In this document: positions 1 to 52,065 of the stretch, piece after piece
Position numbering within the stretch: the first letter of the stretch is position 1
How the letters are laid out: each line of letters starts with the position of its first letter
From: an uncultured Bacilli bacterium
GTDB lineage: Bacteria > Bacillota_I > Bacilli_A > RF39 > UBA660
Assembly: GCA_934183165.1 (NCBI GenBank)
Contig: CAKPRZ010000001.1
Coordinates: forward strand, 54,820-118,819
Direction: 5' to 3'
DNA length: 64,000 nucleotides
Notes under the pieces: model-generated
Databases searched by the model: none
What the model was told of the DNA's origin: nothing
What the model saw: the letters and a program-made list of their open reading frames with translations, nothing else
Position numbers and translations under genes: made by a program

Positions 1-19
1 TTTTTAATAAAATTAAAAA

Positions 20-44
20 GAGTATGTCAAGTTGACATACTCTA
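20..44 (-). terminator. Rho-independent terminator downstream of CDS 52..729. A 12-bp palindrome (agagtatgtcaa/ttgacatactct) is followed by a T-run on the minus strand.
   Basis: The palindrome and T-run were read directly from the sequence. Confidence 0.5.
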
Positions 45-51
45 TAATCGC

Positions 52-729
52 TTAATAACAAATTCGATCAACTACATTAATTTGATCTATTGTCAATAAT
101 TTTTGATTTAAAGTCTCTTTCAATGATAGCTTTTTACCATCTTTAAATATAATTTGTATCTTGCTAGCATTATCTTTCAAAAGTTGTTGCTTACAATTAT
201 TAGAATCATCACACATTGTGTTTTTATTACATACCGATTCTGATTTATCTTCTCTAGAGTCATCTATTTGAAAATCATTATCTACTCTATTATCCATTAA
301 TGATTCATCCTCATTTATAATGGATTTTATCAGCAATATATCATTGTAATAAAGTCCCTCAAAATTGTAATTAAGTGTTTTTTCTTTTGTTCCATCTTCA
401 AAAATATGATTTAAAGATTCTTTAATATATTCTTTATGTTTATCACTATATGAGTATTTTTTGTTTTCTTTTGTATCTTCACAACCTGGTATTCCACAAA
501 AATGAACTGAATCAATACTTATATCATAATTGTTATCAAAAACAATAGTATAGGTCGCGCCAGGATCTTCCATATTTTCATATTTTAATGTATAATTCAC
601 TTCTTTATTTTGAGTTTTATTAGTTGGATTATCATTTCTAGCTATCACTTGAATATAAATAATACCTCCAGATAAAACTAGTACTAAAATTGATAAAATT
701 ATTATCAAAATGTTTTTTCTCTTTTCCAT
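52..729 (-). CDS. Hypothetical N-terminally membrane-anchored extracytoplasmic protein (225 aa).
   Basis: Intact ORF with a single N-terminal hydrophobic segment (ILIIILSILVLVLSGGIIYI). I recognise no conserved motif. Confidence 0.55.
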   Translation of the reverse strand: MEKRKNILIIILSILVLVLSGGIIYIQVIARNDNPTNKTQNKEVNYTLKYENMEDPGATYTIVFDNNYDISIDSVHFCGIPGCEDTKENKKYSYSDKHKEYIKESLNHIFEDGTKEKTLNYNFEGLYYNDILLIKSIINEDESLMDNRVDNDFQIDDSREDKSESVCNKNTMCDDSNNCKQQLLKDNASKIQIIFKDGKKLSLKETLNQKLLTIDQINVVDRICY

Positions 730-4807: not shown

Positions 4808-5701
4808 TTAATTTCTTAAATTTTTACTTATTAATGAAATGTCATTAGATAATTGTTTTATTCTTTCAATTATTCTTTTTGCTTTCACTTTATCTATTCC
4901 ACTATTGGTAGTAGCAAAATGTTTTTCTAACTCATCTATAGTAAAATTAGAAGTGAAAAAAGTTGGTAATTTTTCATCCATTCGATACTGTAGAATTGGT
5001 TCTATTACTTCATCTCTTCCCCATGGAGTTAAATATTCTGCTCCTATATCATCCAAAAGTAATAAAGGTACTTTTTTTAATAAATCAAATTTAGTTCCAT
5101 AATTACTGGAAAAAGATTCTTTTAAATCTCTTAGTAGTTCAGGTACATGTACTATAACTGATTTAACATTTTGTTTAGCAAGTTCATTAAATAGTGCAGC
5201 TATAAGGTATGTTTTACCACTACCAAAGTTACCATACAAATATATACCTTTTATTTTAGTATCTAATTTATATTCTTCTATAAACTTTTTCATTTCCTTA
5301 ATAATAGGAATTCTATTTTTATCATTAGTATAAATATTTTTCATACTGGCATTTTTAATGGACTTAGGAATATCAAAAGTAGTAAGATTATCTTTATATT
5401 TTTCATTTGATAAATAATTACAAATATTATAAGAAAAATTAATAACTTTATCATTTACATTTGGTACCATACAATATCCCTTAACTGTATTTTTACAACA
5501 GTTTAAGCCTTGACATTCTTTACAATGATCTACTTCAATCGCAGAATCCATAAGTAATGATGTATATTCCATACCAAGTTTTTCTTTTATTTTAAACATA
5601 GTAATAAGATTTTTAAAGCATGGAACTTCTAAACTTTTTATATAATTTTGTTTCAATGAAATGTCATCGTTGGCTTTTATAAATTTATTAATTTTGTCCA
5701 T
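4808..5701 (-). CDS. dnaI: Primosomal protein DnaI (helicase loader, DnaC/IstB AAA+ family).
   Basis: N-terminal zinc-binding module (CKECQGLNCC), Walker A GNFGSGKTYLIAAL, and the conserved dnaI-thrS synteny. The start was moved to MDKINKF to avoid overlap with the upstream gene. Confidence 0.8.
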   Translation of the reverse strand: MDKINKFIKANDDISLKQNYIKSLEVPCFKNLITMFKIKEKLGMEYTSLLMDSAIEVDHCKECQGLNCCKNTVKGYCMVPNVNDKVINFSYNICNYLSNEKYKDNLTTFDIPKSIKNASMKNIYTNDKNRIPIIKEMKKFIEEYKLDTKIKGIYLYGNFGSGKTYLIAALFNELAKQNVKSVIVHVPELLRDLKESFSSNYGTKFDLLKKVPLLLLDDIGAEYLTPWGRDEVIEPILQYRMDEKLPTFFTSNFTIDELEKHFATTNSGIDKVKAKRIIERIKQLSNDISLISKNLRN

Positions 5702-5754
5702 ATCTACCACCACAAAAATTATATCAAATAAAAAAATAAAAGTATATACAACTT

Positions 5755-6975
5755 TTATTTTTTGGTACATTTATATTTCAAAAGACTTAATTTACAGGTT
5801 AATTTATTATTATCAAATGAATCTTTTTTCATAGTTAATGTATTTGGCGTTATTTTTTCTATTTGATTATTAGCAAAAGAATAACTTCCAATACTAATAC
5901 TACTACTCTTACTAAAATCAATCTCAGTCAATTTATTACCTTTAAAAGCATTATCTTCTATTTTTTCTACTTTTTCGCCAATTTTTATTGTTGTTATACC
6001 AGAATTTTCAAAAGCTGATTTACCTATTGTTTTAATATTAGAAACTATAAGTTCATTAATGCTTTTATTTTTAAATGTATTTCCATTAACTGATTTGATA
6101 TTCTTTAATTCTAAAGAATTTAAATTGATATTGTTACTAGTAGAATTTATTTCTTCACTTCCATTACCAATAATTGTTATATTTGATATTTTAGTTGTGT
6201 CATCTAAAATGTTATTAATATATTTATTGTAATTAGAAGCACTTATTCTCAAATTAGTTATTTTACTTCCTTTGAATGCGCCAGAGGAAATACTTGCTAT
6301 ATTATTAGTTAACTCCATATTAGTAATTCGCCTATTATTTACAGAGTTACTACCAAACGATATATCAGGATTTATTTGAAAAGTAGTAATTACATTTGGT
6401 ATTTCTTCACTTCCGTTGTAAGTATAACGGTTAACAACTGGCGTATTGTTTGCTACTGCAACTATGTTAATATCGAAATCTTCTTTTATTTCAGTATGAC
6501 GAAGTTTTATATTAATCGCACATATCTTTCTTGGTATACCATTAACTTTCATAGCTTCTTCACCTGTACCATTTATAGTATCCTGCGTAGAATAAATAAA
6601 ATCGTCTTTTAATTGAATAAATCTATTAGGATATTTATATTTGATGTTCCCATACATAATTTCAGAATTATTGGCGCATAAATCTTTTGCCGTATCATCA
6701 CCAAAAGTTATTTTTATACATTGATTGTAATCTGGATGTGCAGTTGTTACATCTATTCCTTCTATATTTTTGACTGCTTTATCTAAAAAGTCATCTTCTA
6801 TTCTTTTTATAACTTCGTTTTTATAGCTTAATATTTCCTTTTTATATAATTCGTTTTGTTGCTTTTCACGATAAGAATCTACAACCTTTAAAAGTCCTAA
6901 CGATATTACCATTACAATAGAAAAAGTTATTATTAATTCAACTACTGTAAAGGCTTTATTATTTATTTTTTTCAT
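5755..6975 (-). CDS. Prepilin-type (class III signal) minor pilin fused to a BspA-type leucine-rich-repeat domain (406 aa).
   Basis: N-terminus MKKINNKA|FTVVELI (Phe+1, Glu+5) followed by a hydrophobic helix. The C-terminal region has ~22-residue LRR_5-like repeats (NLRISASNY..., ITIIGNGSEEI..., KIGEKVEKIEDNAFKGN). Its start overlaps the stop of the upstream pilin gene by 1 nt. Confidence 0.65.
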   Translation of the reverse strand: MKKINNKAFTVVELIITFSIVMVISLGLLKVVDSYREKQQNELYKKEILSYKNEVIKRIEDDFLDKAVKNIEGIDVTTAHPDYNQCIKITFGDDTAKDLCANNSEIMYGNIKYKYPNRFIQLKDDFIYSTQDTINGTGEEAMKVNGIPRKICAINIKLRHTEIKEDFDINIVAVANNTPVVNRYTYNGSEEIPNVITTFQINPDISFGSNSVNNRRITNMELTNNIASISSGAFKGSKITNLRISASNYNKYINNILDDTTKISNITIIGNGSEEINSTSNNINLNSLELKNIKSVNGNTFKNKSINELIVSNIKTIGKSAFENSGITTIKIGEKVEKIEDNAFKGNKLTEIDFSKSSSISIGSYSFANNQIEKITPNTLTMKKDSFDNNKLTCKLSLLKYKCTKK

Positions 6976-7475
6976 TATTTAGCCTCCAAATAAGCAAACC
7001 TATTATTAGTAAATTGTACTAGATAAATTTGCTTACTACTTGTCTCAAAATCTTCTTTTTTATATATACAGTACTCCCTTAAACCACGAATGTTAATATT
7101 ACTACATTTAATATATAAACCTTTTTCAATATAAATTGACTTGATTTTCAAATAATTAAATATTAAAGTTTTATAATAATTATTAAAAAAAGTGCAGTTT
7201 CCTCCAAACTTTCCTTGACAAGTAATACTTGTACCATTACTATCATTAAAGGTATACAATCCATTTGCTACAGGAGGTTCGCCTGATAATTTAACCTCAT
7301 CATACAACGTGTTAATCAAGTATATTTCTTCAGGATTATCATAATTTATAACTTTATTATACTTAGCTAATAGTGTAAAAAAGTTTGCACCAATAAAAGT
7401 AAATATTCCTAAGATAAATACAGCTACCACGATAGCTTCAGCTAAAACGAATCCCTTTTTATTCATTTTTTTCAT
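6975..7475 (-). CDS. Prepilin-type N-terminal cleavage/methylation domain protein (ComGC/pseudopilin-like, 166 aa).
   Basis: N-terminus MKKMNKKG|FVLAEAIVVAVFILGIF matches the prepilin peptidase motif (G-1, F+1, E+5). Confidence 0.7.
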   Translation of the reverse strand: MKKMNKKGFVLAEAIVVAVFILGIFTFIGANFFTLLAKYNKVINYDNPEEIYLINTLYDEVKLSGEPPVANGLYTFNDSNGTSITCQGKFGGNCTFFNNYYKTLIFNYLKIKSIYIEKGLYIKCSNINIRGLREYCIYKKEDFETSSKQIYLVQFTNNRFAYLEAK

Positions 7476-7580
7476 GAAATATCATTCCTTTATTATTGAT
7501 TATATCTATAAATTATTATATAATAAATTATAGTAAAATACTAGAATAAAAAGATAAAAGAAGATAAAGGGGTCACAAAT

Positions 7581-9170
7581 ATGATTGAATACGATGTTGT
7601 AAACGTACCAATTGTTGATATTGTTAACCAAATTATTTTATATGCGTCAAAGAATCGTGCCAGTGATATTCACATGGACCCTAAAGAGGATTCATTGTTA
7701 ATTAGGATGCGAATTGATGGTGAATTAAAAAATCATACAGTTATTCCTAAAGCATATGAAAGAAATTTAATTACTAGGGTTAAACTAATTTCTAATATGA
7801 ATATTACTGAAACCAGATTACCTCAAGATGGTGCCATCAAAGGTAGAATTGAAGGTAGAGATTTAGATATGCGTGTTTCAGTACTACCTACAAACGAAGG
7901 CGAAAAAGTAGTTATTCGTATTCTTGATTATTCAAAAAGTTTAAGTGGAATTGAATCACTTGGCTTTTCAGAAAAAAACCTAACATTACTTAAAAAAATG
8001 TTAAGTGTACCAAATGGAATTATTTTAGTAACAGGTGCTACTGGATCTGGTAAAAGTACTACTACCTACTCCATGTTACAAGAGTTAAACAAAGAAAACG
8101 TTAATATAATAACAGTCGAAGATCCAATTGAAATGAATATTGAAGGTATCAACCAAGTACAAGTTAATAGTGAAATTGGTCTTACGTTCGCGGCTGTTTT
8201 AAGATCTATTTTAAGACAAGATCCTAATATAATATTAATAGGAGAAATTCGTGATTCTGAAACTGCGCAAATCGCAGTACGTGCATCAATAACTGGTCAC
8301 TTAGTTTTATCTACACTACATACAAATAATTCTTTAAGTACAATTGAAAGACTTTTAGATATGGATGTTGAAAGATATTTACTATCAAGTGCCTTAACCG
8401 GTATTATTTCACAGAAATTAGCGCGTAAGTTATGTCCACATTGCAGAATTCAAAGAGCTGCTACCGAGTATGAGAAAGAAGTATTTAAACTTGTACTAAA
8501 TAGAGATATTGATACAGTTTTTGATGCTGGGAAATGTGATAAATGTACAGATGGGTATTATGGAAGAATTGCAATTGAAGAAGTTTTGTATATTAATGAT
8601 GAATTAAGAAGTGTAATTGCTAATCCAAATACAACAAAAGATGAATTAAAGAAGCTTGTTTATACTAAAGATGTTACTACTCTTCTTGGAGATGGATTAG
8701 AAAAAATAATAAATGGTTATACTACATTTAATGAAATATTCAAATTAATTGAAGTCGACCTAGAGATGAAATCTCTTAGAGAAGCTGCTCAAAATAACAA
8801 TATTATAGAATCTAAAGAAGTAGCTAAGCAAGCACCAACTGAACCAGAAATAATTATTGAAGAACCACAATCAATTAAAAAGCAGGAAGTAAAGATGGAA
8901 CCTCAAGTTGATAGTAGGATTATGCCAAGTCTTGCACCAAACATGAATCCAACTTTTAACCCTAATCCAGGCCCTCCTGTATTAGAACCAAATATTAATA
9001 CTAATATACCTCAAAACAACGTCATTGATATTAATCCTAGTTATAACATTAACACTGTTCAACCAGACAAAATAACGTACAATCCTGTTGATGAATATTT
9101 TAGAGGTGAAAATGTTAAACCTATTGTAGATATATATGATTTAGATAGTGGTGATAAAAGTAACTATTAA
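7581..9170 (+). CDS. Type II secretion/type IV pilus assembly ATPase (GspE/PilB/ComGA family) with a ~130-aa Pro/Asn-rich C-terminal extension.
   Basis: Walker A LVTGATGSGKSTTTY, Asp box TVEDPIE, His box, and a tetracysteine motif (CPHC...CDKC). Divergently oriented from the pilin genes. SD AAAGGGG lies upstream. Confidence 0.85.
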   Translation: MIEYDVVNVPIVDIVNQIILYASKNRASDIHMDPKEDSLLIRMRIDGELKNHTVIPKAYERNLITRVKLISNMNITETRLPQDGAIKGRIEGRDLDMRVSVLPTNEGEKVVIRILDYSKSLSGIESLGFSEKNLTLLKKMLSVPNGIILVTGATGSGKSTTTYSMLQELNKENVNIITVEDPIEMNIEGINQVQVNSEIGLTFAAVLRSILRQDPNIILIGEIRDSETAQIAVRASITGHLVLSTLHTNNSLSTIERLLDMDVERYLLSSALTGIISQKLARKLCPHCRIQRAATEYEKEVFKLVLNRDIDTVFDAGKCDKCTDGYYGRIAIEEVLYINDELRSVIANPNTTKDELKKLVYTKDVTTLLGDGLEKIINGYTTFNEIFKLIEVDLEMKSLREAAQNNNIIESKEVAKQAPTEPEIIIEEPQSIKKQEVKMEPQVDSRIMPSLAPNMNPTFNPNPGPPVLEPNINTNIPQNNVIDINPSYNINTVQPDKITYNPVDEYFRGENVKPIVDIYDLDSGDKSNY

Positions 9171-9223: not shown

Positions 9224-9709
9224 ATGACAGCTAAAAACGACTTAATGAAACTCAAAAATAAATTGATTGAAAAAGAAACATCAAGTAATGATTTATCAAA
9301 ATATGATGAATATCTATCTAAAGCAAGTGAAATTGGTAAAATCATTGTCAATAAATGCTTAGCTCAAGATATTTACATAAACACTCAAAAATTACAAAAA
9401 CTATTAGTACTTGTACAAATAGAATGCATAAAAGATAGTGGATTCCCCCTATTTTCACAAAACATAGAATATTGGGAATGTGGTGTTGCGATTAAAGAAG
9501 TGGACAAGGAATTTAGACAATATGCATTGGGATTTAATAAATATTTAAATGAGAAAATTGTGTTACTATATTCAGAAATGCAATATATTGATAATATTAT
9601 AAATCAATACGCTTCTCTTACACCGTATGATTTAAATGAATTATGTTTATTGAATAAAGATATTCTAATTCCATTTGCTAGTAAACAAAAATGTAAAATT
9701 TATAAATAA
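9224..9709 (+). CDS. Hypothetical cytoplasmic protein (161 aa) downstream of the pilus ATPase.
   Basis: Intact ORF with SD AGGTGA. No TM or known motif recognised. Confidence 0.45.
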   Translation: MTAKNDLMKLKNKLIEKETSSNDLSKYDEYLSKASEIGKIIVNKCLAQDIYINTQKLQKLLVLVQIECIKDSGFPLFSQNIEYWECGVAIKEVDKEFRQYALGFNKYLNEKIVLLYSEMQYIDNIINQYASLTPYDLNELCLLNKDILIPFASKQKCKIYK

Positions 9710-16365: not shown

Positions 16366-18894
16366 TTATTTTCTTAAAACAGGTCCTTCGTATTCTTGCT
16401 CTTGTGCTTCAAATAATTCTTTTAACGCTTCTTTTGCAAGTTCTTCATAATAACTTGTATTTACATGTGGTGTTGCATATGATTCTGATTGAGAATTAAC
16501 ACCGGATCTAGTTTCATATCCATCATAATTTTCATCATATATATCATCGCCAAAATCAGAGTCTTCTGGTCCAGCTAAATTTGGATCATCAATAACATTA
16601 TCAGATGGCTTTTCTGATTCTATTGGTGTATCATCTTTAAAATCATTTTTATTGTCGTTATTATTATTGTTGTTATTATTATTGTTGTTATTATTATTGT
16701 TGCTATTATTGTTATTACTATTGTTATTTTTATTATTATTTTTGCTTTCTGCTTGTTTTTGAGCTTCTTTATATAAGTCTTCTGCTTCTTTTCTAGTAAT
16801 AGCACCTTGACTAACTGCTGAATTTAACTTTTGATTAATACCATTTAGCCATCCACTCTTGTATGCTTCAGCCATTTCTCCAGTATAACCTCTTTTTGAT
16901 AAATCTTTCGAAAGTCTTGCTTGAATTTGAGAATCTGAAGATGTAATTCTTTCATTATTAAATGCATATGCTGCTTGAGCTATATCAGATAAAGTACCTT
17001 GTGTTGGAACCTTACTAACTGCATTTGGATTAATTCTATTATATATATCAGCATGACTATATGCACCTTTTTCTTCTGCATAATTAGTTGCATCTGTCCA
17101 TCCAGCCTTAGCTGCAGTCGCTTTATCTCCTTTGTAGGTATTCTTATCTATTTGAACTTCATTAAAATCCTTTTCTTGTTTTTCTGCTTCTTTTCTTTCG
17201 CTTGGAGTTAAATCAGATTTATTAACTTTCTTAGAAGTTGTTGTTGTTGTATTACTGATAACCTTACCGTTTTTCTTTGCAAAATCAAGCTTTTGCTCAG
17301 CACTCATCTTGTCCCATTCATCTTTTGAAACGGAAGTGCCAGTATATGTTTCTATTTTTTCTACTCCTCTAATTCTATTGTTATATAAGATATCATCTTT
17401 AACTTCAATATAAGGTCCAAGTTCTCTATCAGCAGCATTTTTAACTTGATTATATACAGGAACATTATTTTCTTTATTTTCTAATTCTACATACTCTTCA
17501 TATGTCATTTGCCCTGATAGTATCTTTTCTGATGATTTTACATCTTTTTTATCTAAAGCTGTTGATGCTAGTGCAACCTTAGTAACCATTTGTTGATTAG
17601 CTAATGGAGTAATTATATCAGAAGATATATGTTCTCTCATGGCTGCTATTGTACAACTACCTTTCTCGGCAGTGTCTAACATATCTTTTAATTTTTCACC
17701 ACTTTGAATTTGTGATGCTTTATTATCACGATACTCTTCATCTAAAGTACCAGGTTCTGAAGTTACTTTTAAATAATGACTGTATTTTTCTTCAACATTG
17801 GCATCATAATAACCTCTAACCATATTTAACATTAAATGTTTAACATATTTTTCAGTAGATTTATCCATTTTTGAATCATTGGCACCATTAATACCATGAA
17901 TATAAGAGTATCCAAATGTTCTAATTAATCTATCAGCAGCATCAGTAGTTTGATTTTTATTAAATTCTACTAACTTGCCTTCCAAATCTTCAAACCAAGT
18001 TCTGTTTTCTTTGTCTGTTATCAATGTAGAAACAGTGCTAGGCGCTTTTCCATTCATAGCATACAAACTCATTTTAGATACAAAGTTGTAATAATTTTCT
18101 TCAATAGCCTGTGCATCTAATTCTTGAAGCCCAAAGATTGAGAATAATTCTTCACCACTATAGTTATTTAATACTAACATAGCTGACGATACTTCATCAT
18201 AAGTAAATTGTAATACTGCATTATCCTTTTTATCTGCTTCTAATGCAAATACAGATTCATCTTTTGCCAACTTATTCAATTGTTCTGTAACATCATATGC
18301 AGTTTGTGAGAACTTTCTTAATTCACTATCTTCAGGTAAAGCTTTCATAAGTTCATCAAATGATGCTGTATTAAAATCTATGTTTTTATTTGTTGACTTT
18401 CCATTACGTTTAGAACATTGTGAAAGCGTTACAGCTAATGCACCGGTTACACCAGCTACAGCTGCTGTAGTAACTGCAATTGTTTTAATAGTTTTTCTCT
18501 TATTTTTATCTTTACGTATAGAATTAATGTCTTCATCATCTTTTTCTTCTTCATCATCAAATGTTGGTTCAGTATCAGGAGAAATATCAGCTATTGAATC
18601 AATATCCGAAGGGAATTTTACAATTAAACTATCCCTAGTAAATTCTGTTTCTAAATTTTCTGCTTCTTTACTGTTTTCAGGAACAATCTCTAAATGTCCC
18701 ATTGCTATTAACTGATTTAAGAAATCAGGAGATGAAGTATCAAGACCAAATTCATTTGCAAAATCTATAATCATTTGATCATGGACTTTAAAGTCATATG
18801 GTACCTTTTTTAGACCATCATCAGTATGAACATATGCATATTTTGGATTATTAGATTCATTATTTACAATTGAAATTTTATTTATTTTATCCAT
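16366..18894 (-). CDS. Large membrane protein (842 aa): ~135-aa cytoplasmic N-domain, one TM, ~700-aa extracytoplasmic region with a poly-Asn tract and an acidic C-terminus.
   Basis: TM IKTIAVTTAAVAGVTGALAVTL. Low-complexity NNNKNNNSNNNNSNNNNNNNNNNNNNNNDNKND. No known catalytic motif. Confidence 0.65.
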   Translation of the reverse strand: MDKINKISIVNNESNNPKYAYVHTDDGLKKVPYDFKVHDQMIIDFANEFGLDTSSPDFLNQLIAMGHLEIVPENSKEAENLETEFTRDSLIVKFPSDIDSIADISPDTEPTFDDEEEKDDEDINSIRKDKNKRKTIKTIAVTTAAVAGVTGALAVTLSQCSKRNGKSTNKNIDFNTASFDELMKALPEDSELRKFSQTAYDVTEQLNKLAKDESVFALEADKKDNAVLQFTYDEVSSAMLVLNNYSGEELFSIFGLQELDAQAIEENYYNFVSKMSLYAMNGKAPSTVSTLITDKENRTWFEDLEGKLVEFNKNQTTDAADRLIRTFGYSYIHGINGANDSKMDKSTEKYVKHLMLNMVRGYYDANVEEKYSHYLKVTSEPGTLDEEYRDNKASQIQSGEKLKDMLDTAEKGSCTIAAMREHISSDIITPLANQQMVTKVALASTALDKKDVKSSEKILSGQMTYEEYVELENKENNVPVYNQVKNAADRELGPYIEVKDDILYNNRIRGVEKIETYTGTSVSKDEWDKMSAEQKLDFAKKNGKVISNTTTTTSKKVNKSDLTPSERKEAEKQEKDFNEVQIDKNTYKGDKATAAKAGWTDATNYAEEKGAYSHADIYNRINPNAVSKVPTQGTLSDIAQAAYAFNNERITSSDSQIQARLSKDLSKRGYTGEMAEAYKSGWLNGINQKLNSAVSQGAITRKEAEDLYKEAQKQAESKNNNKNNNSNNNNSNNNNNNNNNNNNNNNDNKNDFKDDTPIESEKPSDNVIDDPNLAGPEDSDFGDDIYDENYDGYETRSGVNSQSESYATPHVNTSYYEELAKEALKELFEAQEQEYEGPVLRK
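16652..16742. repeat. Coding trinucleotide (AAT/AAC)n-type microsatellite (~90 nt) encoding the poly-Asn tract.
   Basis: gttattattattgttgttattattattgttgttattattattgttgctattattgttattactattgttatt (plus strand). Confidence 0.8.
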
Positions 18895-18911
18895 ATATTA
18901 TCACTTCACTC

Positions 18912-21239
18912 CTAACCTTTTACTCTTTTATTACCAGTCATTTTATATCCTTGGCTTATTAATGAAGAATCATTTTGAATTGTACTCCATTTTGTAGATG
19001 AGCCAGCTTTCTTAATTAATGTACGAGTTTTATATCTATAACTATATACATCTTTGAATTTCTCTTTTCTTGTTTCCTCATAACCGATTACCTTAGTATA
19101 AGTACTGAATGAATATGTTTTCTTTGTTTCATATCCAGTACATGTTACTTTAACACCTGTTGATAAAGTAATTGTATCAGTAGCAGTTACAGTACCAGCA
19201 GTTCTTGTATATACTTTAAATAATTTATAAGGAGTTGAATTACATTCGCTACCACATGCATTCCAATTCATTCCTGCATATACGTATTTAGTAGTTAAAG
19301 TGTCAGCTGGTTTTTCTTTTTTAGATATAGTTTTTAAATATGTCCATCCATCGTTAGATCCAACCTTAACAGCATATGTAATATTTTTGTTTGTTGTTGT
19401 ACGATAATAATTATATCCTTTACATACTTTTTCTGTTAATGATGCTGATTCTTTTATAACAGTACCATAAATTGGAGCCCCAACATTATATTCATATCCA
19501 TCGGATACTTGTTTCTTTCCTAAATCTTCTGTTATTTTAGTATCTGTTTTTCCAAACTTAGGTGGATTTGATGGATTATATGTTTTTGTTGTCCATCCAC
19601 TCCAATTACTATATTCATTATCCCAAGTTTTTAAATACTCATATTCATAAGTTATATCTTTTTTAATTACTTTAATACTACATACATTTGTATTTCCAGC
19701 ATTATCTTTTACATATCCATAGATTGTATGAGTTCCATTTGCAGTAATCTTGTATGTTGCATTATTTTTATATGTAGTTGATTTTCCAAGTCCAAACGAA
19801 TTCATTCCACTTGTTGCATCATATTTTGACTTAAAGCCAATTACTACATTACTTGTATAATGTCCATCATTATATGTACCCCTTTGAACATCCAAACTAC
19901 AATTTGGCTTTGTAGCATCTCTCTTTACTGAAATACTACATACTGCTGTATTTCCTTTCGAATCTTTTACATATCCATATACATTTTTTGATCCGTCTTG
20001 ACTTATTGTATAAGTATTTTTACCATTATAATTTGTACTAGTACCTATTCCATAAGCTGTTATCCTAGCTCCATTTGTTGTTTTCTTAGAAGCAAAGCTA
20101 ATTCCAACATTACTTACATACCAGTTATTATCACCTTTTTTACCTGATGATATTGTTAAACTACAAGATGGTTCAGAGTATTTACTTGGCTCTGTTTTTT
20201 CTTTAGTAACACTTAAGTCACATACAGCTTTATTACCAGCTCTATCTATAACATAACCATACACTTTTGTTGTTCCATTTTTAGTTACTACATAACTTGT
20301 TGATTTGTTATAAAGTGGTTTTGTTGCTGTTGTTACTCCATAATTTGAAATACCACTAGTTGCATCAACTCTACTATTAAATCCAACTTTTACATTTGAT
20401 ATATAATTGCCATTTGAATTCTTAGTTCCTGATAATACAGCTAAGCTACAACTTGGTTTTTTAGTATCTCTTTTAACTGCAACACTACATACAGCTGTTT
20501 TTCCTTTTGAATCTTTTACATATCCATATACTTTTGTCGTTCCATCAGATGTAACTTTGTAACTTGTTTTTCCATTATAATTTTTACTAGTACCTATTCC
20601 ATAAGATGTTATCTTGGCACCTTTTGTTGTTGATTTTGATTTAAATCTTACTGTTACATCACCAACATACCAACCATTTTCTCCACGTTTACCATCACTA
20701 ATTTCTAGAACACATGAAGGTCCTCCTGATGAAGTTGGTTTTGGTGTTGGATTTGATTTTCCACCACCTGTACCTTTTGAAGGTGTAGTTGGTTCTTCTT
20801 CTTTTTCACAAATTGCTGACTCACAATATGAATAGCATCCTAAGTGTACTATAATGTAATCTTCCTCTTCACTACATTTTAAATACACTTTCATCTCATA
20901 TTCATTTTCCATTTTAGTTAGTTTTACATATGAGTTTCTTGTATCACATGATTTACCATTTTTATCTTTAAATGGTAAAAGTAATTTCATATCAAGCATT
21001 TCTTGCAATGTTAAAGTAACAGAATCTCCCACATTCTGTGGTAACCTTTCTGTTGTAAAATAGCTTATTGCAGCATCTTTCATTTCTCCAACATTAGCAC
21101 TAAATATTTTACTATTTAAACCCGTTAAATCTGGTATTGGTAATAACCATACCAATAATAATACAAAGACAATTATTAAAATTAATTTTAATAAGAATTC
21201 CTTTAAAGGAAAGCTTCTTCTTTCTTCTTCTTCGTACAT
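18912..21239 (-). CDS. Large membrane-anchored cell-surface protein (775 aa) with four tandem ~90-aa Ig-like repeats.
   Basis: N-terminal TM (LILIIVFVLLLVWLL), a Pro/Thr/Gly linker, and repeats of the form PSC(V/S)L.IS.GK.G.N.WY...V...F.SK.TT.GA.IT.YGIGTS.NYNGK..Y........VYGYVKD..G..AVCS..V. Confidence 0.7.
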   Translation of the reverse strand: MYEEEERRSFPLKEFLLKLILIIVFVLLLVWLLPIPDLTGLNSKIFSANVGEMKDAAISYFTTERLPQNVGDSVTLTLQEMLDMKLLLPFKDKNGKSCDTRNSYVKLTKMENEYEMKVYLKCSEEEDYIIVHLGCYSYCESAICEKEEEPTTPSKGTGGGKSNPTPKPTSSGGPSCVLEISDGKRGENGWYVGDVTVRFKSKSTTKGAKITSYGIGTSKNYNGKTSYKVTSDGTTKVYGYVKDSKGKTAVCSVAVKRDTKKPSCSLAVLSGTKNSNGNYISNVKVGFNSRVDATSGISNYGVTTATKPLYNKSTSYVVTKNGTTKVYGYVIDRAGNKAVCDLSVTKEKTEPSKYSEPSCSLTISSGKKGDNNWYVSNVGISFASKKTTNGARITAYGIGTSTNYNGKNTYTISQDGSKNVYGYVKDSKGNTAVCSISVKRDATKPNCSLDVQRGTYNDGHYTSNVVIGFKSKYDATSGMNSFGLGKSTTYKNNATYKITANGTHTIYGYVKDNAGNTNVCSIKVIKKDITYEYEYLKTWDNEYSNWSGWTTKTYNPSNPPKFGKTDTKITEDLGKKQVSDGYEYNVGAPIYGTVIKESASLTEKVCKGYNYYRTTTNKNITYAVKVGSNDGWTYLKTISKKEKPADTLTTKYVYAGMNWNACGSECNSTPYKLFKVYTRTAGTVTATDTITLSTGVKVTCTGYETKKTYSFSTYTKVIGYEETRKEKFKDVYSYRYKTRTLIKKAGSSTKWSTIQNDSSLISQGYKMTGNKRVKG
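19607..20717. repeat. Four tandem ~280-bp intragenic direct repeats encoding the Ig-like modules (approximate bounds).
   Basis: The repeated protein modules derive from nucleotide-level repeats (e.g. recurring ...ccatatac...ttgtaccat... blocks). Confidence 0.55.
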
Positions 21240-21240
21240 A

Positions 21241-21546
21241 TCAGTATCCCCCTCTCACTTGTGGTGTATTATAACACTTTTTATTATTTTTGTCAATCGA
21301 ATTATTAATTTCAACTACTGTGCATCCTACATTAAAATTATCTAAATAAAATTTACTCACTAATCTATTTCTTTTCAATTCATTATGCACTTCCTTTTTT
21401 AATATACCTTGACCAATTCCATGAACAATAAGAACTTTTTTATTTTTCATGCGATAATTATCAGTAATAAAATCTTTTACTAATATTCTTGCAACATCTT
21501 TTGTTTCACCATGTAAATCAAGGCTAGGAATATTATCACTAAACAT
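21241..21546 (-). CDS. Smr (small MutS-related) domain protein.
   Basis: LDLHGETKDVARILVKDFI ... VLIVHGIGQGILKKEVHNELK matches the Smr LDLHG...HGKG signature. Its stop abuts the start of the 775-aa gene. Confidence 0.6.
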   Translation of the reverse strand: MFSDNIPSLDLHGETKDVARILVKDFITDNYRMKNKKVLIVHGIGQGILKKEVHNELKRNRLVSKFYLDNFNVGCTVVEINNSIDKNNKKCYNTPQVRGGY

Positions 21547-40253: not shown

Positions 40254-41336
40254 TTATTTATTCTCAGTACAATTAATTGTTTCTGTTTTTACACATTTAC
40301 CATCTTTTTCTTTATATCCACTTGGACATGATTTTGATTTTTTTGTAGTAGATGTTGGAACACACCACATAAAAGCTCCACCCATACCATCTTCTTCAGT
40401 ATACATGTAATCAGATTTGTTTTGGCATTTCCAATTTCCATAATCGTTAGTAGCATGATATTTTTTACTATAATTCAAACATTTGCCATTTTTTAAGGTT
40501 AATCCACTTGAACATGTATTACGTGTAGTTAAATCAGTTGTAATATTTTTGGTACAAGTTTTATTATCACTACTTGGAGTACAATCTTTTGGACATACAT
40601 ACAAATCCTTCCAAATTGCAATAATTGTTACATTGCTATCTATTTTTGTATCTTTTGTTATAGTTGTACCATCACTTAATTTCCATCCACCAAAGATATA
40701 TCCTTTTTTCGTTGGATTTTGAGGCAACTTTATTTTATCACCCTTAGCAATAATAATATTATCAATAATATTTCCACCATCACTGTTAACAGTTATCGTA
40801 ATTTTTTCATCTTTCTGTGATATCCATCTTGGCTTTATAATCATTCCACTGTTGACTACATTATTACCATCAATTACCTCACCACCATCCAAAATCCAAC
40901 CAGCGAACACATATCCGCTCTTTGTAGGCGGAGAAATAAATTGTATTTTTTCTCCATCTATTTCATTTACATCAAGCTTTTTACCATTATCTAAAACAAA
41001 TGTTACATTAACTATAGTTTTTGTCTTATCTAACCATATTGCTTTTAGTTTAATATCGTTAGTTATAATCAAATCATCAGTCGCAATACTACCATCAGTT
41101 AGTTCAAAGCCTCCAAAAACATAACCATCTTTAACTGGATCTTTAGGTAATTTTAACTTACTATTCTCCGCCACCTCAAGATCACTTATACTACTACCGC
41201 CAACAGTATCAAAGCTAACTATATATTTTTTAGAATTATTCTTAAAATTTAAACCTAGCAACAATCCTATTATTAATAGTAAAAATAGAATTAATATCAA
41301 AAGCCATTTTTTCTTTTTTTTCTTACTTTCTTCCAT
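40254..41336 (-). CDS. Membrane-anchored surface protein with three Listeria-Bacteroides-type (Flg_new) repeats and a Cys-rich C-terminal domain.
   Basis: Repeats GYVFGGFELTDGS...IW, GYVFAGWILDGGE...RW, GYIFGGWKLSDGT...IW. N-terminal TM. C-terminal region with ~14 Cys. Confidence 0.7.
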   Translation of the reverse strand: MEESKKKKKKWLLILILFLLLIIGLLLGLNFKNNSKKYIVSFDTVGGSSISDLEVAENSKLKLPKDPVKDGYVFGGFELTDGSIATDDLIITNDIKLKAIWLDKTKTIVNVTFVLDNGKKLDVNEIDGEKIQFISPPTKSGYVFAGWILDGGEVIDGNNVVNSGMIIKPRWISQKDEKITITVNSDGGNIIDNIIIAKGDKIKLPQNPTKKGYIFGGWKLSDGTTITKDTKIDSNVTIIAIWKDLYVCPKDCTPSSDNKTCTKNITTDLTTRNTCSSGLTLKNGKCLNYSKKYHATNDYGNWKCQNKSDYMYTEEDGMGGAFMWCVPTSTTKKSKSCPSGYKEKDGKCVKTETINCTENK

Positions 41337-47469: not shown

Positions 47470-47868
47470 TTATCTATTATTATTGTTATTAGATGATCCG
47501 CCACTAAAAGAACTACCGCCAAAAAAACTACCACCAAACGATCCACCATAAAATGATGATCCACCTGAATAGGATGATCCTGAATAAGCCTTTGGTACAT
47601 AATGAGGAATAATTCTAAATTCAGTATTACTCACAATAACACCATCAATTTTTGAATCTTTTTTTCTAGCCATAATAACCGACTTAACATCATTATCAAT
47701 GATAAGTGATAGTTTAAGAAAATAACCTACAATTACTCCATTAACATTATTAGCTAGAAAATTATAAACTTCTTTCAAATCGTTATCATTAATTTCATAA
47801 TATTTAGTTAAATCAAAGCATCTTTTATTTCTAATAATTTCTGCATATGTTTGAGCATCATCTTTCAT
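47470..47868 (-). CDS. Small protein (132 aa) with a conserved N-domain, a Gly/Ser/Tyr/Phe repeat tail and poly-Asn. Immediately downstream of, and overlapping, the rSAM gene.
   Basis: TYAEIIRNKRCFDLTKYYE... N-domain. Tail AYSGSSYSGGSSFYGGSFGGSFFGGSSFSGGSSNNNNNR. The start overlaps the rSAM stop by 11 nt. Confidence 0.6.
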   Translation of the reverse strand: MKDDAQTYAEIIRNKRCFDLTKYYEINDNDLKEVYNFLANNVNGVIVGYFLKLSLIIDNDVKSVIMARKKDSKIDGVIVSNTEFRIIPHYVPKAYSGSSYSGGSSFYGGSFGGSFFGGSSFSGGSSNNNNNR

Positions 47869-49609
47869 TTTTTCCCTCCAAATTTAAATAATAAAATTCA
47901 ATATTTTGAAATGGTAAATTTATAGCTTGAATATGATAATAAGCATTATTTTTTTGTTTTAGGTAATGATAATCCCTTAAAGCTGATGTCGTAAAGAAAA
48001 TATTATTAGAATTATCGATAGAATATTGACTATGGTACTCTTTAATTAAATTAGTTATATCATATTCATAGTAATATTCATTATTTGTATTAACACTATC
48101 TAAAACTCCTTTGTAAATTTGATGAGTTACAACATGTCGCTGTTTTGTTCTTTCTTCATCACCATAAGTAACTAAATTCCCACTAAGAATCATAATGTAT
48201 AAAGAATTATTTTCAGGATAATCACATTCTTCTTTAATTAAATTCTTTTTCATACAAATAACAATCTTACTTTGAGGCGTTATGTATATAATTTCTCTTG
48301 ATTTCTTTATTATTTGAGAAGAAAGCGGATATTTGATATCATCAACCTTTAATATAAAAGAATTATCATCATATATATATTTAAGTCTAGGATCACTATC
48401 AATAATGTCTTCTAATAAGGGATATGGACTATTAGTATCTTTTTTTATATATTTAGTAGCGTCTCCTATTCTCATTTTGGTTGCATATTGATATGTGAAT
48501 TCATTAAATTTATCTTCTAAATAGTTTCTATCTTTATACATTTGTTTTTGTAAAAGACAAGTATAACTTTTGTTTTGATTATATGTATTTTTTACAAATG
48601 GGCATCCTGTTTTGCATAAATATAAATAACTACAGTTAGCGCAATCCTCATTAAATGGTAGTTTATTATGATTGATAAAAATCTTCTTATAAGCTTCTTT
48701 TAATATATCATCAACCGTATTTGTATAAATATTTCCATAGTAATAATCAGGATTTTTTTGTCCTCTTACACAAGAATAAATATCTCCATTTCTTTCTAGT
48801 AAAAAGAATTTTTCACCACAATTGTCACAATTAGAGCAATAATCCGGTCCAAATTCATCAAACCATGCACCATTAACTCCACTATCTAAATCAGTCCCAT
48901 CAAATTCTTGATGCATTTTTATGTAGAAATCGACTTGTTCTTCTTCTGCTAAATGATGTAATAATCCATTTGAATTATAATCAAAACCTATCATAAAGTT
49001 AAAATCATTCATATCTAAACATGTATTTTTATTTAAAAATTTTATATCTTCAATAATCTCATCTATGTGTGAATAATGTTCTTTGAATATGGTAGATGAA
49101 ACTTTCTTCTTGTTTGGAATATTTTCTAATAGCTTTATATTATCTAAGATTCTTTCCAATGTCTTAGCTCCACCTTTAGTAACTCTGTATTCATTATGAA
49201 GCGATAAAGGTAAATCAAGACTTCCCGATATTGAAACATTAAATTCTTTAATAGTATCAATATGTTTTTCTATATCAAATAAATTTGTCTTTATATGTGG
49301 ATTACCGATTTTAAAGCCACCTTCATTTATAACTTGTTGATTTTCTTTATAATAATCACTTATAAATTTTATAACGTCATGAAAATCATCTTTACTTAAT
49401 GTTGTAACTTCTCCTCCATGAAGTGAAATATTAAATGGTATAACATTATTCTCTTTAAATTTTGAAATAGCATATTCTAATGTATCTAATGGTTTATATT
49501 TAGTTTTTAATTCTTTTGTATTATCCTCTAAATAGCAATATTTACATCCCATATTACATGCCATTGTTGGAACATACAATAAATGAATATATTTATAATT
49601 TTTTTCCAT
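47858..49609 (-). CDS. Radical SAM / SPASM-domain enzyme with a ~230-aa C-terminal extension (583 aa).
   Basis: CNMGCKYC (Cx3Cx2C) at aa 18-25. SPASM-type clusters CSNCDNCG ... C...CANCSYLYLCKTGCP...C. Confidence 0.85.
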   Translation of the reverse strand: MEKNYKYIHLLYVPTMACNMGCKYCYLEDNTKELKTKYKPLDTLEYAISKFKENNVIPFNISLHGGEVTTLSKDDFHDVIKFISDYYKENQQVINEGGFKIGNPHIKTNLFDIEKHIDTIKEFNVSISGSLDLPLSLHNEYRVTKGGAKTLERILDNIKLLENIPNKKKVSSTIFKEHYSHIDEIIEDIKFLNKNTCLDMNDFNFMIGFDYNSNGLLHHLAEEEQVDFYIKMHQEFDGTDLDSGVNGAWFDEFGPDYCSNCDNCGEKFFLLERNGDIYSCVRGQKNPDYYYGNIYTNTVDDILKEAYKKIFINHNKLPFNEDCANCSYLYLCKTGCPFVKNTYNQNKSYTCLLQKQMYKDRNYLEDKFNEFTYQYATKMRIGDATKYIKKDTNSPYPLLEDIIDSDPRLKYIYDDNSFILKVDDIKYPLSSQIIKKSREIIYITPQSKIVICMKKNLIKEECDYPENNSLYIMILSGNLVTYGDEERTKQRHVVTHQIYKGVLDSVNTNNEYYYEYDITNLIKEYHSQYSIDNSNNIFFTTSALRDYHYLKQKNNAYYHIQAINLPFQNIEFYYLNLEGKNER

Positions 49610-49618
49610 ATTATCCCC

Positions 49619-50611
49619 CTATTTATTGAAATATACAATTGTTGTTGGGCTTTCCTTAAAAGCGTTCTCATTAATATATACATCAAATGGAATTCTTATT
49701 TCATACAAATTATCACATTTTCTAAATGCTGATGACCCGATAGTTTGTAGATTCGAATCAGGACCAATTTCAACTAATTCTAAAGATTTATTCTTATAAA
49801 ATGCACGTCCTCCTATTCTAACTACACTATCAGGAATAGTAATACTTTGTAGTGAAGTGCATCCTTCAAAAGTACTTCCTTTTATTTCTCTAAGACTCTT
49901 AGGTAATTTAATACTACCTAGACGAACATCATTTTTAAATGTTTCACCTCTTATTTCTGTAATTGTATCCGGTAAAGTTACTTCTTTTAAAAATCTCATG
50001 TTAGAAAATGTATTACCTCTTAAACTTACTATATTTTTTCCTTTATAAGTAGCTGGAATTGTTGCAGTTTTAAAATTAGTAATTCCCGATATGTAGAACC
50101 TAACACCATATCCACCTTCCATTTTCTCATACAATATTATTGGTTTATAAAAAATTACTAAAGCAATAAAAACAGAAATCAAATTTATAATTATGAATCT
50201 TAATGAAGTATTATCCTTAGTTATAGATAGTTTACAATTCATAATAATATTAGAAATCTTTTCATTTGGTCTTGACATAATTTCTTTTTTTAAATATTTA
50301 ATCAAATCATATTTTGTATAATAATTAAGAAAAAAAAGTAAAATTATTATTCCTATCACATAAGAATAAGTTGGAAAATGAAAGAAAATCATTGCAATAA
50401 AAACAAATAAAAGTAATGCAAAAATGCTAGCCAATATTGTTTTTCTCTTTAACAATTCCGATGTTATTCCCGGATTATTAATATCCCACTCTATATTTTT
50501 CATTTCCCTTTTAATAAATTCTTCTATTAATTTGTCTTCATCATTCTCATATATTGGATCGACATTATTAGAAATTACTTTGACATTATCATCTAAACTT
50601 TCATTATTCAT
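49619..50611 (-). CDS. Membrane protein with a C-terminal BspA-type leucine-rich-repeat domain (330 aa).
   Basis: Three hydrophobic helices, then LRR_5-like repeats (LKEVTLPDTITEIRGETFKN / LGSIKLPKSLREIKGSTFEGC / LQSITIPDSVVRIGGRAFYKN). Confidence 0.65.
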   Translation of the reverse strand: MNNESLDDNVKVISNNVDPIYENDEDKLIEEFIKREMKNIEWDINNPGITSELLKRKTILASIFALLLFVFIAMIFFHFPTYSYVIGIIILLFFLNYYTKYDLIKYLKKEIMSRPNEKISNIIMNCKLSITKDNTSLRFIIINLISVFIALVIFYKPIILYEKMEGGYGVRFYISGITNFKTATIPATYKGKNIVSLRGNTFSNMRFLKEVTLPDTITEIRGETFKNDVRLGSIKLPKSLREIKGSTFEGCTSLQSITIPDSVVRIGGRAFYKNKSLELVEIGPDSNLQTIGSSAFRKCDNLYEIRIPFDVYINENAFKESPTTIVYFNK

Positions 50612-50726
50612 AACACAATACCCAACTTAATACCTTTCTACTTATATAAACATTATAACATATCAGCAATAGTTTTTCGACAATATATTATGTTTACTAA
50701 CATTTTATTTTTGAATAAAAACAATT

Positions 50727-51656
50727 TCATTTTCTAAAAAGAATTGTTATCCTAGCTAAAATATATGTAAAGGTATCATTTAAATAATTTTCTACATTCG
50801 TATTAAATTCAAGTTGCTCCTTTAAGCTAATAAAAGCATTTTTTATTTTATTGTCATAAAATCCTTTATCAAAATCATTATGTAATGTATCAATATCAAT
50901 ATCAATATTGGAAACCTTCAAGCTAAATATATCTTGATTTGAATATTTTAATAGTAAAGAAACTAAAAATACTTCTTCAAAGATATTAATTGATAAATCA
51001 GTACTATTGTTATATAAGTCTTTTAATAAAGCATTAATATTTAGAGCATTAAATCTTTTACAAAATATATTTTCAAAATTAATATAATTTAAATAGTTAC
51101 TGATAAGTTCTATGCCAATGTAATTACCTTTTTTCTTTAAAGGCATATAATCAAGAGTAATTTTAATGTCTTCTGGATTATTCATCTTATATACTTTAAA
51201 AAAAGCTTCCATTCCATCTTTTAATGTAGAATTATAAAAATAATTATTTACTTTTATAAGATTATGTTTAAAAACAGTTTCATAAAAAAACTTAGTTTTA
51301 CTAAATAATTCACCTATATATTTCAAACTCAATTGATATAAATTAGTGATATTTTCTTTTAAAAGAATTTCTATTATTTCATAAGAAGAATATTTTTTCA
51401 AATAAACTCCCATTGTCCATATCATGGATTTATAAATAACTTCTACTTCTTTCACAGGAATAGTATTTATTTTGTTTTTAAATTGCTCTTTTAATTGGTC
51501 TTTTAAAGCATTAAACATTTTATAATTAATTACCACGAATTCTTCTTTTGATATAATTTGATATTGAAAAAAGCAATTTATTATTTGTTCTAAATAATAA
51601 TTATTCTTTTCAATTTTAGGAATTTTAGGAACAATACTATTCATAAAATTTATCAC
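50727..51656 (-). CDS. Hypothetical cytoplasmic protein (309 aa).
   Basis: Intact ORF. Overlaps the upstream 142-aa gene by 20 nt. Confidence 0.5.
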   Translation of the reverse strand: MINFMNSIVPKIPKIEKNNYYLEQIINCFFQYQIISKEEFVVINYKMFNALKDQLKEQFKNKINTIPVKEVEVIYKSMIWTMGVYLKKYSSYEIIEILLKENITNLYQLSLKYIGELFSKTKFFYETVFKHNLIKVNNYFYNSTLKDGMEAFFKVYKMNNPEDIKITLDYMPLKKKGNYIGIELISNYLNYINFENIFCKRFNALNINALLKDLYNNSTDLSINIFEEVFLVSLLLKYSNQDIFSLKVSNIDIDIDTLHNDFDKGFYDNKIKNAFISLKEQLEFNTNVENYLNDTFTYILARITILFRK

Positions 51657-52065
51657 TTTCTAATTTATTTTTTAATTCATTCAAGCAAAAATCCTGTAGT
51701 ATTTCAATAGATCCTTCACAAACTCCATCAAAACTATTTTTAATATAATCAATAATCTCATCATCGTTTAAAAAGTTATCAAATTCTGATTGATATAAAT
51801 AAAAGGTTTCTATCAAGGCATTGACTATCTCATAATAATTATCACAATCAATAAAAGAAGATTCATAAAAGTTTTGAATCAAATAATTTACATTATTATA
51901 TATTTCAAATCTATTTAATTGCTTTAATAAAAGATTTTTATTTTCAATTAGTTGTATAGCTTGTTTCTTTGTTAATACCAAATTTCTTTCAGAGGTAATA
52001 TCATTAACACTAAGAACTTTTTTTATCTCTAAATCTAGATTCATATTATCAATTGATTTTATCAT
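51637..52065 (-). CDS. Hypothetical acidic cytoplasmic protein (142 aa).
   Basis: SD GAAGGGAGAA upstream. Lies downstream of the sigma gene terminator. Confidence 0.5.
   Translation of the reverse strand: MIKSIDNMNLDLEIKKVLSVNDITSERNLVLTKKQAIQLIENKNLLLKQLNRFEIYNNVNYLIQNFYESSFIDCDNYYEIVNALIETFYLYQSEFDNFLNDDEIIDYIKNSFDGVCEGSIEILQDFCLNELKNKLESDKFYE

Follow-up and report, generated by a model that had tools for sequence, protein, structure and literature searches.

We analysed a 64-kb stretch of DNA, hereafter the window, from an uncultured Bacilli bacterium of the RF39 lineage (GenBank assembly GCA_934183165.1, contig CAKPRZ010000001.1, positions 54,820 to 118,819). The window has a GC content of ~25%, and its minus strand holds most of the genes. 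Near its left end lie three genes of a putative type IV filament (T4F): two adjacent prepilin-like genes on the minus strand, here termed pilin1 and pilin2, and a divergently transcribed gene for an assembly ATPase. A first-pass annotation, made by a model from the letters of the window, had described these genes as a minimal pilus-like module with a leucine-rich repeat (LRR) pilin and no platform protein. The three open reading frames (ORFs) that it had recognized proved to be intact and real (Table 1).

The stop codon of pilin1 overlaps the start codon of pilin2 in the sequence TAATG, and a GGAGG motif lies 8 nt upstream of the pilin2 start, so the two genes are probably translationally coupled. 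The promoter-like site listed for the ATPase gene is suggestive only, and a scan of this AT-rich region gave counts of promoter-like sites and terminators that were no higher than in shuffled sequence.

Table 1 Features of the pilin–ATPase cassette and of other genes in the window (positions are those of the window)
Feature	Position (nt)	Residues (aa)	Strand	Description	Basis
pilin2	5755-6975	406	-	modular prepilin-like protein	ORF and LRR_5 match
pilin2 leader	6952-6975	1-8	-	class-III-like N-terminus	
pilin2 pilin module	6448-6951	9-176	-		AlphaFold2 model
pilin2 LRR_5 solenoid	5800-6447	~177-392	-		Pfam and AlphaFold2
pilin2 C-terminal tail		393-406	-	Cys-flanked	
pilin1	6975-7475	166	-	prepilin-like protein	ORF
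pilin1 leader	7452-7475	1-8	-		
pilin1 helix	7287-7451	9-63	-	termed invariant	
pilin1 head	6978-7286	64-166	-	variable	
Divergent intergenic region, pilin1/ATPase	7476-7580			105 bp	
Promoter-like site for ATPase	7496-7524			TTGATT-17-TATAAT	suggestive only
ATPase ribosome-binding site	within 7476-7580			AAAGGGG	
ATPase	7581-9170	529	+		ORF
ATPase core	7581-8762	1-394	+	N2 and C-terminal ATPase domain	
ATPase C-terminal tail	8763-9170	395-529	+		composition
dnaI	4808-5770		-		
SocA/Panacea-domain gene	9224-9709	161	+	antitoxin-like	
Adjacent large ORFs	16366-21546	842, 775 and 101	-		
Flg_new repeat protein	40254-41336	360	-		
Second LRR_5 region	47470-52065		-		
Second LRR_5 protein	49619-50611	330	-		

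The ATPase matched the T2SSE family (PF00437) over aa 10–387 with E = 7e-121 (403.8 bits, cut-off 24.9). Against structures in the PDB, it matched GspE, PilB and PilF (4pht, 3jc8, 5tsg, 6ejf) over aa 8–390 with E values of about 1e-96 to 1e-99, while PilT gave 1e-35. The Walker A, Asp box, Walker B, His box and tetracysteine (CxxC...CxxC) motifs are all intact, at aa 152–159, 180–184, 217–225, 238–242 and 285–322, and the N1 domain is absent. Scores with the NCBIfam models were 484.5 bits for GspE (cut-off 630), 447.1 for PilB (676), 399.4 for TfpB (850) and 269.3 for ComGA (300), none of which reaches the curated equivalog cut-off. The name "ComGA-type" given to the protein in the first-pass annotation agrees with its domain architecture but not with these scores, in which GspE and PilB (484 and 447 bits) stand well above ComGA (269 bits). 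The complete core, the missing N1 domain and the low-complexity tail were all described correctly. The tail, a disordered stretch of 135 aa, is rich in N, P, I and E (13% N, 13% P, 11% I) and ends in ...IVDIYDLDSGDKSNY. We considered and ruled out that it is a conserved domain, as its length varied from ~10 to ~370 aa and its sequence was not conserved among relatives (L014–L093). It is thus a variable extension rather than the special feature it had been taken for. In many relatives, the tail ends in an acidic-hydrophobic motif (..TEILDLG.., ..VDLI/..DLI or ..EEII/..EII), which may be a tethered short linear motif.

Both minus-strand proteins are prepilin-like, as had been proposed. Pilin1 starts with MKKMNKKG↓FVLAEAIVVAVFILGIFTFIG (KKG↓FVLAE) and pilin2 with MKKINNKA↓FTVVELIITFSIVMVISLGLL (NKA↓FTVVE). 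In both, a short basic leader ends in G or A (position −1), F follows at +1 and E at +5, and then comes a hydrophobic stretch; by motif, this is a class III signal peptide. In a six-frame motif scan of the 64 kb, pilin1 and pilin2 were the sole ORFs with such an N-terminus. In relatives, the leader pattern (K/R-rich...G↓F/MxxxE) is kept, mostly with G at −1. Neither protein matched TIGR02532 at E ≤ 0.1, and the N-terminus of pilin2 was weakly ComGE-like in NCBIfam.

The AlphaFold2 (AF2) model of pilin2, with a predicted local distance difference test score of 81.5, consists of a long helix of 60 residues (aa 7–66) and a beta-sheet (aa 68–176), which are joined by a short linker to an LRR solenoid (aa 180–382). 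LRR_5 was matched at aa 282–392 in Pfam with E = 8.9e-18 (64.8 bits, cut-off 27.7). The best fold neighbours in the PDB were BspA-type LRR surface proteins and PcpA, the best of them at E = 2.4e-3 and none at E ≤ 1e-3. Pilin2 is therefore a modular type IV pilin, that is, a pilin module with an extra independently folding domain. The structure prediction that the first-pass annotation had called for agrees with the fusion it had read from the gene, with a putative pilin module (aa 1–176) and a solenoid. The repeats span aa ~180–392, about half of the protein and not its bulk, as had been stated. That the LRR part is a pilus-displayed adhesin is plausible from the type of the module.

The exact ATPase was found on 21 contigs from independent human-gut assemblies, and its neighbours were always the same. 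At least 12 independent intact variants of pilin2 were recovered, with lengths of 402–409 aa and identities of 87–100%, which contradicts the possibility that the LRR ORF is the product of a frameshift fusion. A scan with one genome per species yielded 80 loci with ATPases 60–83% identical to that of the window, nearly all from metagenome-assembled genomes named "uncultured Bacilli bacterium", together with Clostridium sp. CAG:710, CAG:417 and "Tenericutes" UMGS bins. These genomes presumably belong to the GTDB order RF39; NCBI files "Candidatus Scybalousia" under Bacteroidales incertae sedis, which is uninformative, and we found no paper connecting CAG-710 with RF39. A metagenome scan yielded 80 further loci (57–87% identity). 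ORF clustering showed that the ATPase, pilin1 and pilin2 families (present in 88, 73 and 63 loci, respectively) co-occur and that the ATPase gene is transcribed away from both pilin genes. Of the loci, 116 were informative, in that the ATPase was intact and its upstream sequence ran to 1.5 kb or more; the number of divergent pilin-like ORFs was exactly two in 97 of these, one in 18 and zero in one. These results show that the cassette of an ATPase and two pilins is conserved lineage-wide.

The cassette usually has tmk as its outer neighbour at one end and mutS, ylbL and a ylbJ-like gene at the other. In the window, dnaI (PRK08939, 268.6 bits, cut-off 228) lies directly downstream of pilin2, just as the first-pass annotation had observed. 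This adjacency is confined to the subclade of the window, and most relatives have the ylbJ-like gene, ylbL and mutS there instead, indicating that the link to dnaI is lineage-specific and incidental.

Within the species, the three genes evolve very differently. Between the strain of the window and locus L002, the nonsynonymous and synonymous divergences (dN and dS) were 0 and 0.009 for the ATPase, and dN was 0–0.0025 for thrS, thyA, folA, dnaI and tmk. By comparison, dN and dS were 0.088 and 0.11 for pilin1 and 0.064 and 0.082 for pilin2, so that the two pilins diverged ~25–60 times more than the neighbouring genes. With its intact motifs and a dN of zero, the ATPase is shown to be a PilB/GspE-type extension motor under strong purifying selection. 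Variable alignment columns made up 2–5% of the pilin helices and 25–37% of the heads and the LRR, a pattern that is classic for surface-exposed pilins. The divergence of the pilins is compatible with diversifying selection, with import of alleles by recombination or with relaxed constraint. The neighbouring dnaI had a dS of 0.06 and a normal dN in the same comparison, while the dS values of the ATPase, thrS and thyA genes were 0.009–0.02; this is consistent with a recombination tract reaching out of the pilin genes.

Across species, the variation extends to whole domains. In the proteins P0014 and P0015 (500 aa, other LRRs) and in P0016 (238 aa, dockerin), the N-terminal ~176 aa are shared with the window's pilin2 and the remainder is fully divergent. 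P0016 is encoded in the syntenic locus L013, with the order thyA-folA-tmk, ATPase, pilin1, pilin2-dockerin, dnaI. Among 41 enlarged cassette pilins, Pfam identified ALK_LTK_GRD in eight (best E = 5e-47), Laminin_G_3 in three, LRR_5 in two, DUF6273 in two and Dockerin_1 in one, and many had no known domain. The enlarged member can be pilin1 or pilin2. In the 97 loci with two pilins, both were ~160–260 aa long in 63, one was at least 300 aa in 28, and both were in the remaining six. A search with the pilin2 stem found 449 cluster representatives at E ≤ 1e-3; the 150 listed of these were 72–776 aa long. Pilin stems are thus shown to bear interchangeable C-terminal modules across species, and the module in the window is a BspA-type LRR solenoid.

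No gene for a platform protein (T2SSF) or a prepilin peptidase (Peptidase_A24) was found in the window, either in precomputed Pfam tables or in phmmer searches seeded from E. coli and from PilC and PilD of the lineage type. The E. coli seeds HofC, GspF, GspO, GspL and GspM and Tad T2SSF seeds from L011 had no match at E ≤ 10 among the six-frame ORFs of the window and of L001–L093. For PilD this negative is weak, because the lineage's PilD is itself reached by E. coli GspO at no better than E = 9e-5; a repeat with lineage-type PilC and PilD seeds again found neither in the window. Within 10 kb on either side of the ATPase in ~160 related loci, PilC and PilD were also absent, with the exception of L132. 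The first-pass annotation was therefore right that neither component lies adjacent, but their absence holds locally only.

In relatives, a pilC–pilD pair is conserved next to yqfQ. With a lineage-type PilC taken from L132 as the query, we found 6,584 homologues at E ≤ 1e-30, and the best 120 of these were 69–99% identical, mostly ~600–660 aa long (range 419–769) and all with PF00482. The relatives' PilC scored 183.7 bits for this family. A gene of 252–254 aa with A24_N_bact and Peptidase_A24 domains lies directly downstream of pilC in L176, L178–L182 and L185. The gene order is bipA, yqfQ, pilC, pilD, lspA in L176, a contig of 365 kb, and yqfQ, pilC, pilD, murG, murB, ftsQAZ, comEA, comEC, followed by a 549-aa pilin (MKKG↓FTLAELL), in L178–L182. 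In L185 (GCA_965315465.1, 25% GC), the order is dnaG, sigA, yqfQ, pilC, pilD, a 118-aa pilin, queH, bacA and an ATPase that is 63% identical to that of the window and divergent from a 520-aa pilin1-type gene. The small pilin passes the N_methyl and TIGR02532 cut-offs, the pilC–pilD pair is ~2 kb from the orthologous ATPase, and pilC, pilD, the 118-aa pilin, the ATPase and the pilin1-type gene all fall within 8 kb, making a complete set on a single contig in a relative. It is thus shown that the lineage encodes pilC–pilD, further pilins and comEA–comEC at other loci, and the suggestion that the three genes of the window form a self-contained module is not supported.

The PilC of the lineage is closer to the GspF/PilC models (294 bits) than to ComGB (137 bits, cut-off 240). 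It is ~600–660 aa long (L185:4201-6132, L176:10001-11908), with an N-terminal extension of 230–240 aa before the full GspF/PilC-like part; this extension (~238 aa) contains several hydrophobic helices and a Lys/Glu-rich stretch and is unusual for platform proteins. The 549-aa pilin (L178:9326-13311; also L179–L181) carries DUF6273 and directly follows comEA–comEC, ~5 kb downstream of pilC–pilD and past murG–ftsZ. In at least one species, this order ties the filament genes to those for DNA uptake. We rejected the metagenome contig L132 (OGWY01003128.1), in which pilD–pilC lies 3.5 kb from a cassette, as probably a chimeric contig. It is collinear with L052 and L131 (same species, 98.4% identity) only to nt 8706, where the pilD–pilC segment begins, and its PilC shares 98% identity with the PilC of L185, a different species. 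The junction is likely a chimeric assembly, or else a recombination junction.

On the Hadza contig of the window itself, a third pilin gene was found ~7.7 kb to the left of window position 1, after topA (L183:17709-20678). Its product of 1,116 aa starts with MKDKKG↓FTITEVLATLVILG (MKDKKG↓FTITEVL), passes the cut-offs of N_methyl and TIGR02532, and has Flg_new (Listeria-Bacteroides) repeats and an OmpL47-type domain. The genome of the window therefore has at least three pilin genes.

The explanation that we favour, with a probability of roughly 65%, is a T4F of the PilB/PilC/PilD type whose genes are split between loci, with the window holding the ATPase and minor-pilin cassette and the LRR of pilin2 serving as an exchangeable adhesin. 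A PilD-type peptidase encoded elsewhere in the genome would cleave pilin1 after G8 and pilin2 after A8, and the hexameric ATPase would dock on a PilC-type platform and drive the pilins from the membrane into the filament. Pilin1 and pilin2 would be low-abundance subunits, probably at the tip and not shaft-building, because both exceed 300 aa in some relatives and would be too bulky for a shaft. From this location it would follow that the LRR module is shown at the filament end, where it is a putative adhesin for a ligand on a host or microbial surface; we infer the adhesion from the module type and the within-species hypervariability. Allelic diversification and module swapping may alter the binding specificity, or evade antibodies or phages. 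The disordered tail of the ATPase would be a non-essential, fast-evolving extension whose acidic-hydrophobic end may bind a partner.

Several observations weigh against this explanation. Pilin2 scored 17.1 bits for N_methyl (PF07963), below the cut-off of 21.2, and its residue at −1 is Ala, not Gly. Pilin1 had no match in Pfam or NCBIfam and no significant fold match, and four of its five AF2 models were poor. The dN/dS of the pilins is ~0.78, which is below 1, and their dS is also raised; relaxed constraint or imported alleles could suffice without positive selection. In the window's own genome, neither pilC and pilD nor a small major pilin was found in the 64 kb and ~10 kb of left flank, and the sole locus with pilC/pilD near a typical cassette (L132) looks chimeric. 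The tip location and adhesion are drawn by analogy with PilB and PilC of Streptococcus sanguinis.

An alternative is a competence (Com)-like pilus that mainly captures and takes up DNA, for transformation or nucleotide scavenging, with the bulky modules secondary. The Com pilus consists of the ATPase ComGA, the platform ComGB, the peptidase ComC and the pilins ComGC–GG. Like ComGA, the ATPase studied here belongs to a monoderm Bacilli host and lacks N1, and it comes to 269 of the 300 bits set for the ComGA model; the N-termini of pilin2 and of the small pilin in L185 weakly match ComGE, ComGC and ComGD; and comEA–comEC lie ~5 kb downstream of pilC–pilD in L178–L182, with a pilin gene directly after. 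RF39 has also been reported to lack nucleic-acid biosynthesis genes (PMC13155120). However, the GspE/PilB and GspF/PilC models outscore ComGA and ComGB (484 against 269 bits and 294 against 137 bits), and both Com equivalog cut-offs are missed. There is no comGA–GG operon; instead, an ATPase diverges from only two pilin genes, with no platform gene adjacent, an arrangement kept in 97 of 116 loci. As the first-pass annotation had judged, this gene order corresponds to no comG operon and to no canonical type IV pilus operon. The ATPase also has the full GspE/PilB C-terminal region with the tetracysteine motif, the lineage's PilC has its N-terminal extension, and the pilins are large and modular, with LRR, dockerin and lectin modules that are protein- or glycan-binding rather than DNA-binding types. 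In the window's genome, comEA and comEC were not seen in the 64 kb and 10 kb of left flank. We consider a primarily DNA-uptake pilus unlikely, and a role in DNA uptake would be compatible with adhesion. A short pseudopilus resembling that of the type II secretion system (T2SS), which in a monoderm would push or anchor modular pilins or cargo through the thin wall without forming long pili, is suggested by GspE and GspF being the best hidden Markov model matches of the ATPase and PilC, by the lack of a small major pilin in the sampled part of the window's genome, and by the six relatives in which both cassette pilins exceed 300 aa. At sub-threshold scores, though, the GspE/PilB and GspF/PilC models cannot tell T2SS from type IV pili, and a 118-aa pilin, the size of a major pilin, adjoins pilC–pilD in L185. 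A secretin or other T2SS-specific parts would not be expected in a monoderm in any case. This reading is, in our view, very unlikely.

Two further readings question whether the genes belong to a complete or working machine at all. A self-contained minimal machine, needing neither a platform of the PilC type nor a prepilin peptidase of its own, would account for the missing T2SSF and A24 genes in the window and within 10 kb of the ATPase in all of the ~160 loci except L132. It is hardly tenable given the conserved pilC–pilD pairs in the lineage, one of which lies ~2 kb from an orthologous ATPase in L185, and the conserved leader with G/A at −1, F at +1 and E at +5, which implies processing by an A24 peptidase. 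To our knowledge, every characterised T4F needs a platform protein. Finally, the genes might be the degenerate remains of a pilus or competence system that has been lost, an outcome the first-pass annotation had allowed for, or an assembly or frameshift artefact. The fast divergence of the pilins (dN/dS ~0.78), the lack of a family match for pilin1 and the truncated pilins in two assemblies point this way. The truncations, however, are scaffold gaps, seen as a run of N in L004 and as X residues in L006; intact ORFs are present in many independent assemblies and at more than 100 related loci; the helices of both pilins are invariant; and the ATPase has a dN of 0 and all of its catalytic motifs. 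Conservation and the pattern of selection thus contradict decay, which we regard as having next to no probability.

The modular pilins described here have their closest counterparts in S. sanguinis, where PilB combines a pilin module with vWA and PilC combines one with a ConA-like lectin (Raynaud et al. 2021, PMC8179133; Shahin et al. 2023, PMC9934059), and modular pilins are known as adhesins (PMC8179133). Like these two proteins, pilin2 is presumably a minor subunit at the tip, in which a short linker connects a bulky binding module to a small pilin module at the N-terminus, and Laminin_G_3/ConA-like lectin modules like that of PilC also occur on pilins of this lineage. The differences are that the module in the window is a BspA-type LRR, that one stem family bears at least five different modules across species, that N_methyl of pilin2 is below the Pfam cut-off, and that a two-pilin cassette divergent from the ATPase and apart from pilC/pilD replaces the single pil locus. 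LRR_5 is presumably the InterPro entry IPR026906. Given this identity, the pilin–LRR_5 architecture is already catalogued, since IPR012902–IPR026906 is the seventh most common architecture in a survey of modular pilins, with 18 proteins (Raynaud et al. 2021, PMC8179133).

The BspA-type LRR_5 proteins, such as BACOVA_01565 and BACOVA_04585 of Bacteroides ovatus and pneumococcal PcpA, resemble the C-terminal half of pilin2 and are its best structural neighbours. They differ in being anchored as lipoproteins, by choline binding or at the cell surface and not by a pilin stem, and the fold match is weak (E = 2.4e-3). With the PilB, GspE and PilF ATPases of T4a pili and T2SS, the window's ATPase shares the N2 and C-terminal domains and the catalytic and zinc-motif residues; it differs in lacking N1/GSPII, in its variable disordered tail and in its scores below the NCBIfam equivalog cut-offs. 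Another gut clade, TANB77, has an order-wide conserved cluster for a Tad/CpaF-type pilus at a single locus, and its abundance co-varies with that of RF39 (Nat Commun 2024, PMC11680825). Both cases involve a pilus gene set with several pilin-like genes conserved across an uncultured, genome-reduced gut clade, but the system described here is of the PilB/PilC type, with split loci and modular pilins. Our literature search turned up no description of type IV pili for RF39.

RF39-like Bacilli, which are uncultured, are prevalent gut inhabitants of humans and animals, and associations with host traits have been described for them. A lineage-wide filament system whose surface subunits evolve fastest among the genes nearby, and whose adhesin modules are swapped between species, is a concrete candidate for the interface with the host or with neighbouring microbes. 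The LRR and dockerin modules, the ATPase and the pilC–pilD pair offer targets for binding assays, strain typing, and enrichment or cultivation. For pilus biology, the lineage provides a natural series of modular pilins on one stem and a T4F divided into an ATPase and minor-pilin cassette and a separate platform and peptidase pair. The system is useful to microbiome and pilus specialists and mechanistically unsurprising, being a known kind of machine and not a platform-less one.

A more far-reaching version, which we put forward tentatively and consider doubtful, is a socket-tipped filament that attaches these genome-reduced gut Bacilli to a host surface or to partner microbes, accepts rapidly diversifying LRR, dockerin, lectin, ALK-type glycine-rich and Listeria-type repeat modules and combines dockerin–cohesin docking with ComEA/ComEC DNA import in an epibiont-like lifestyle. 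A strategy of this kind has been proposed for Saccharibacteria. The dockerin-tipped variant would then dock the pilus onto the cohesin-bearing scaffolds of neighbouring fibre degraders, and the filament, ComEA and ComEC would import DNA and cover the nucleotide auxotrophy of the lineage.

Some other genes of the window were recorded alongside the cassette. The SocA/Panacea-domain gene directly downstream of the ATPase was found in the species of the window only (seven loci) and was absent from the syntenic L013 and from other relatives. The adjacent 842-aa and 775-aa ORFs and the 101-aa ORF have no recorded Pfam match, and the family of the 842-aa ORF occurred in seven of the fetched loci only. 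The 360-aa protein carries Flg_new (Listeria-Bacteroides) repeats, the repeat type of the 1,116-aa third pilin; the motif scan found no pilin-like N-terminus in it. The second LRR_5 protein has N-terminal hydrophobic segments and adjoins genes for a radical-SAM/SPASM protein (583 aa), DUF6323 and DUF6179, with a sigma-70 gene upstream, and this region may be a peptide-maturation or surface-protein cluster.

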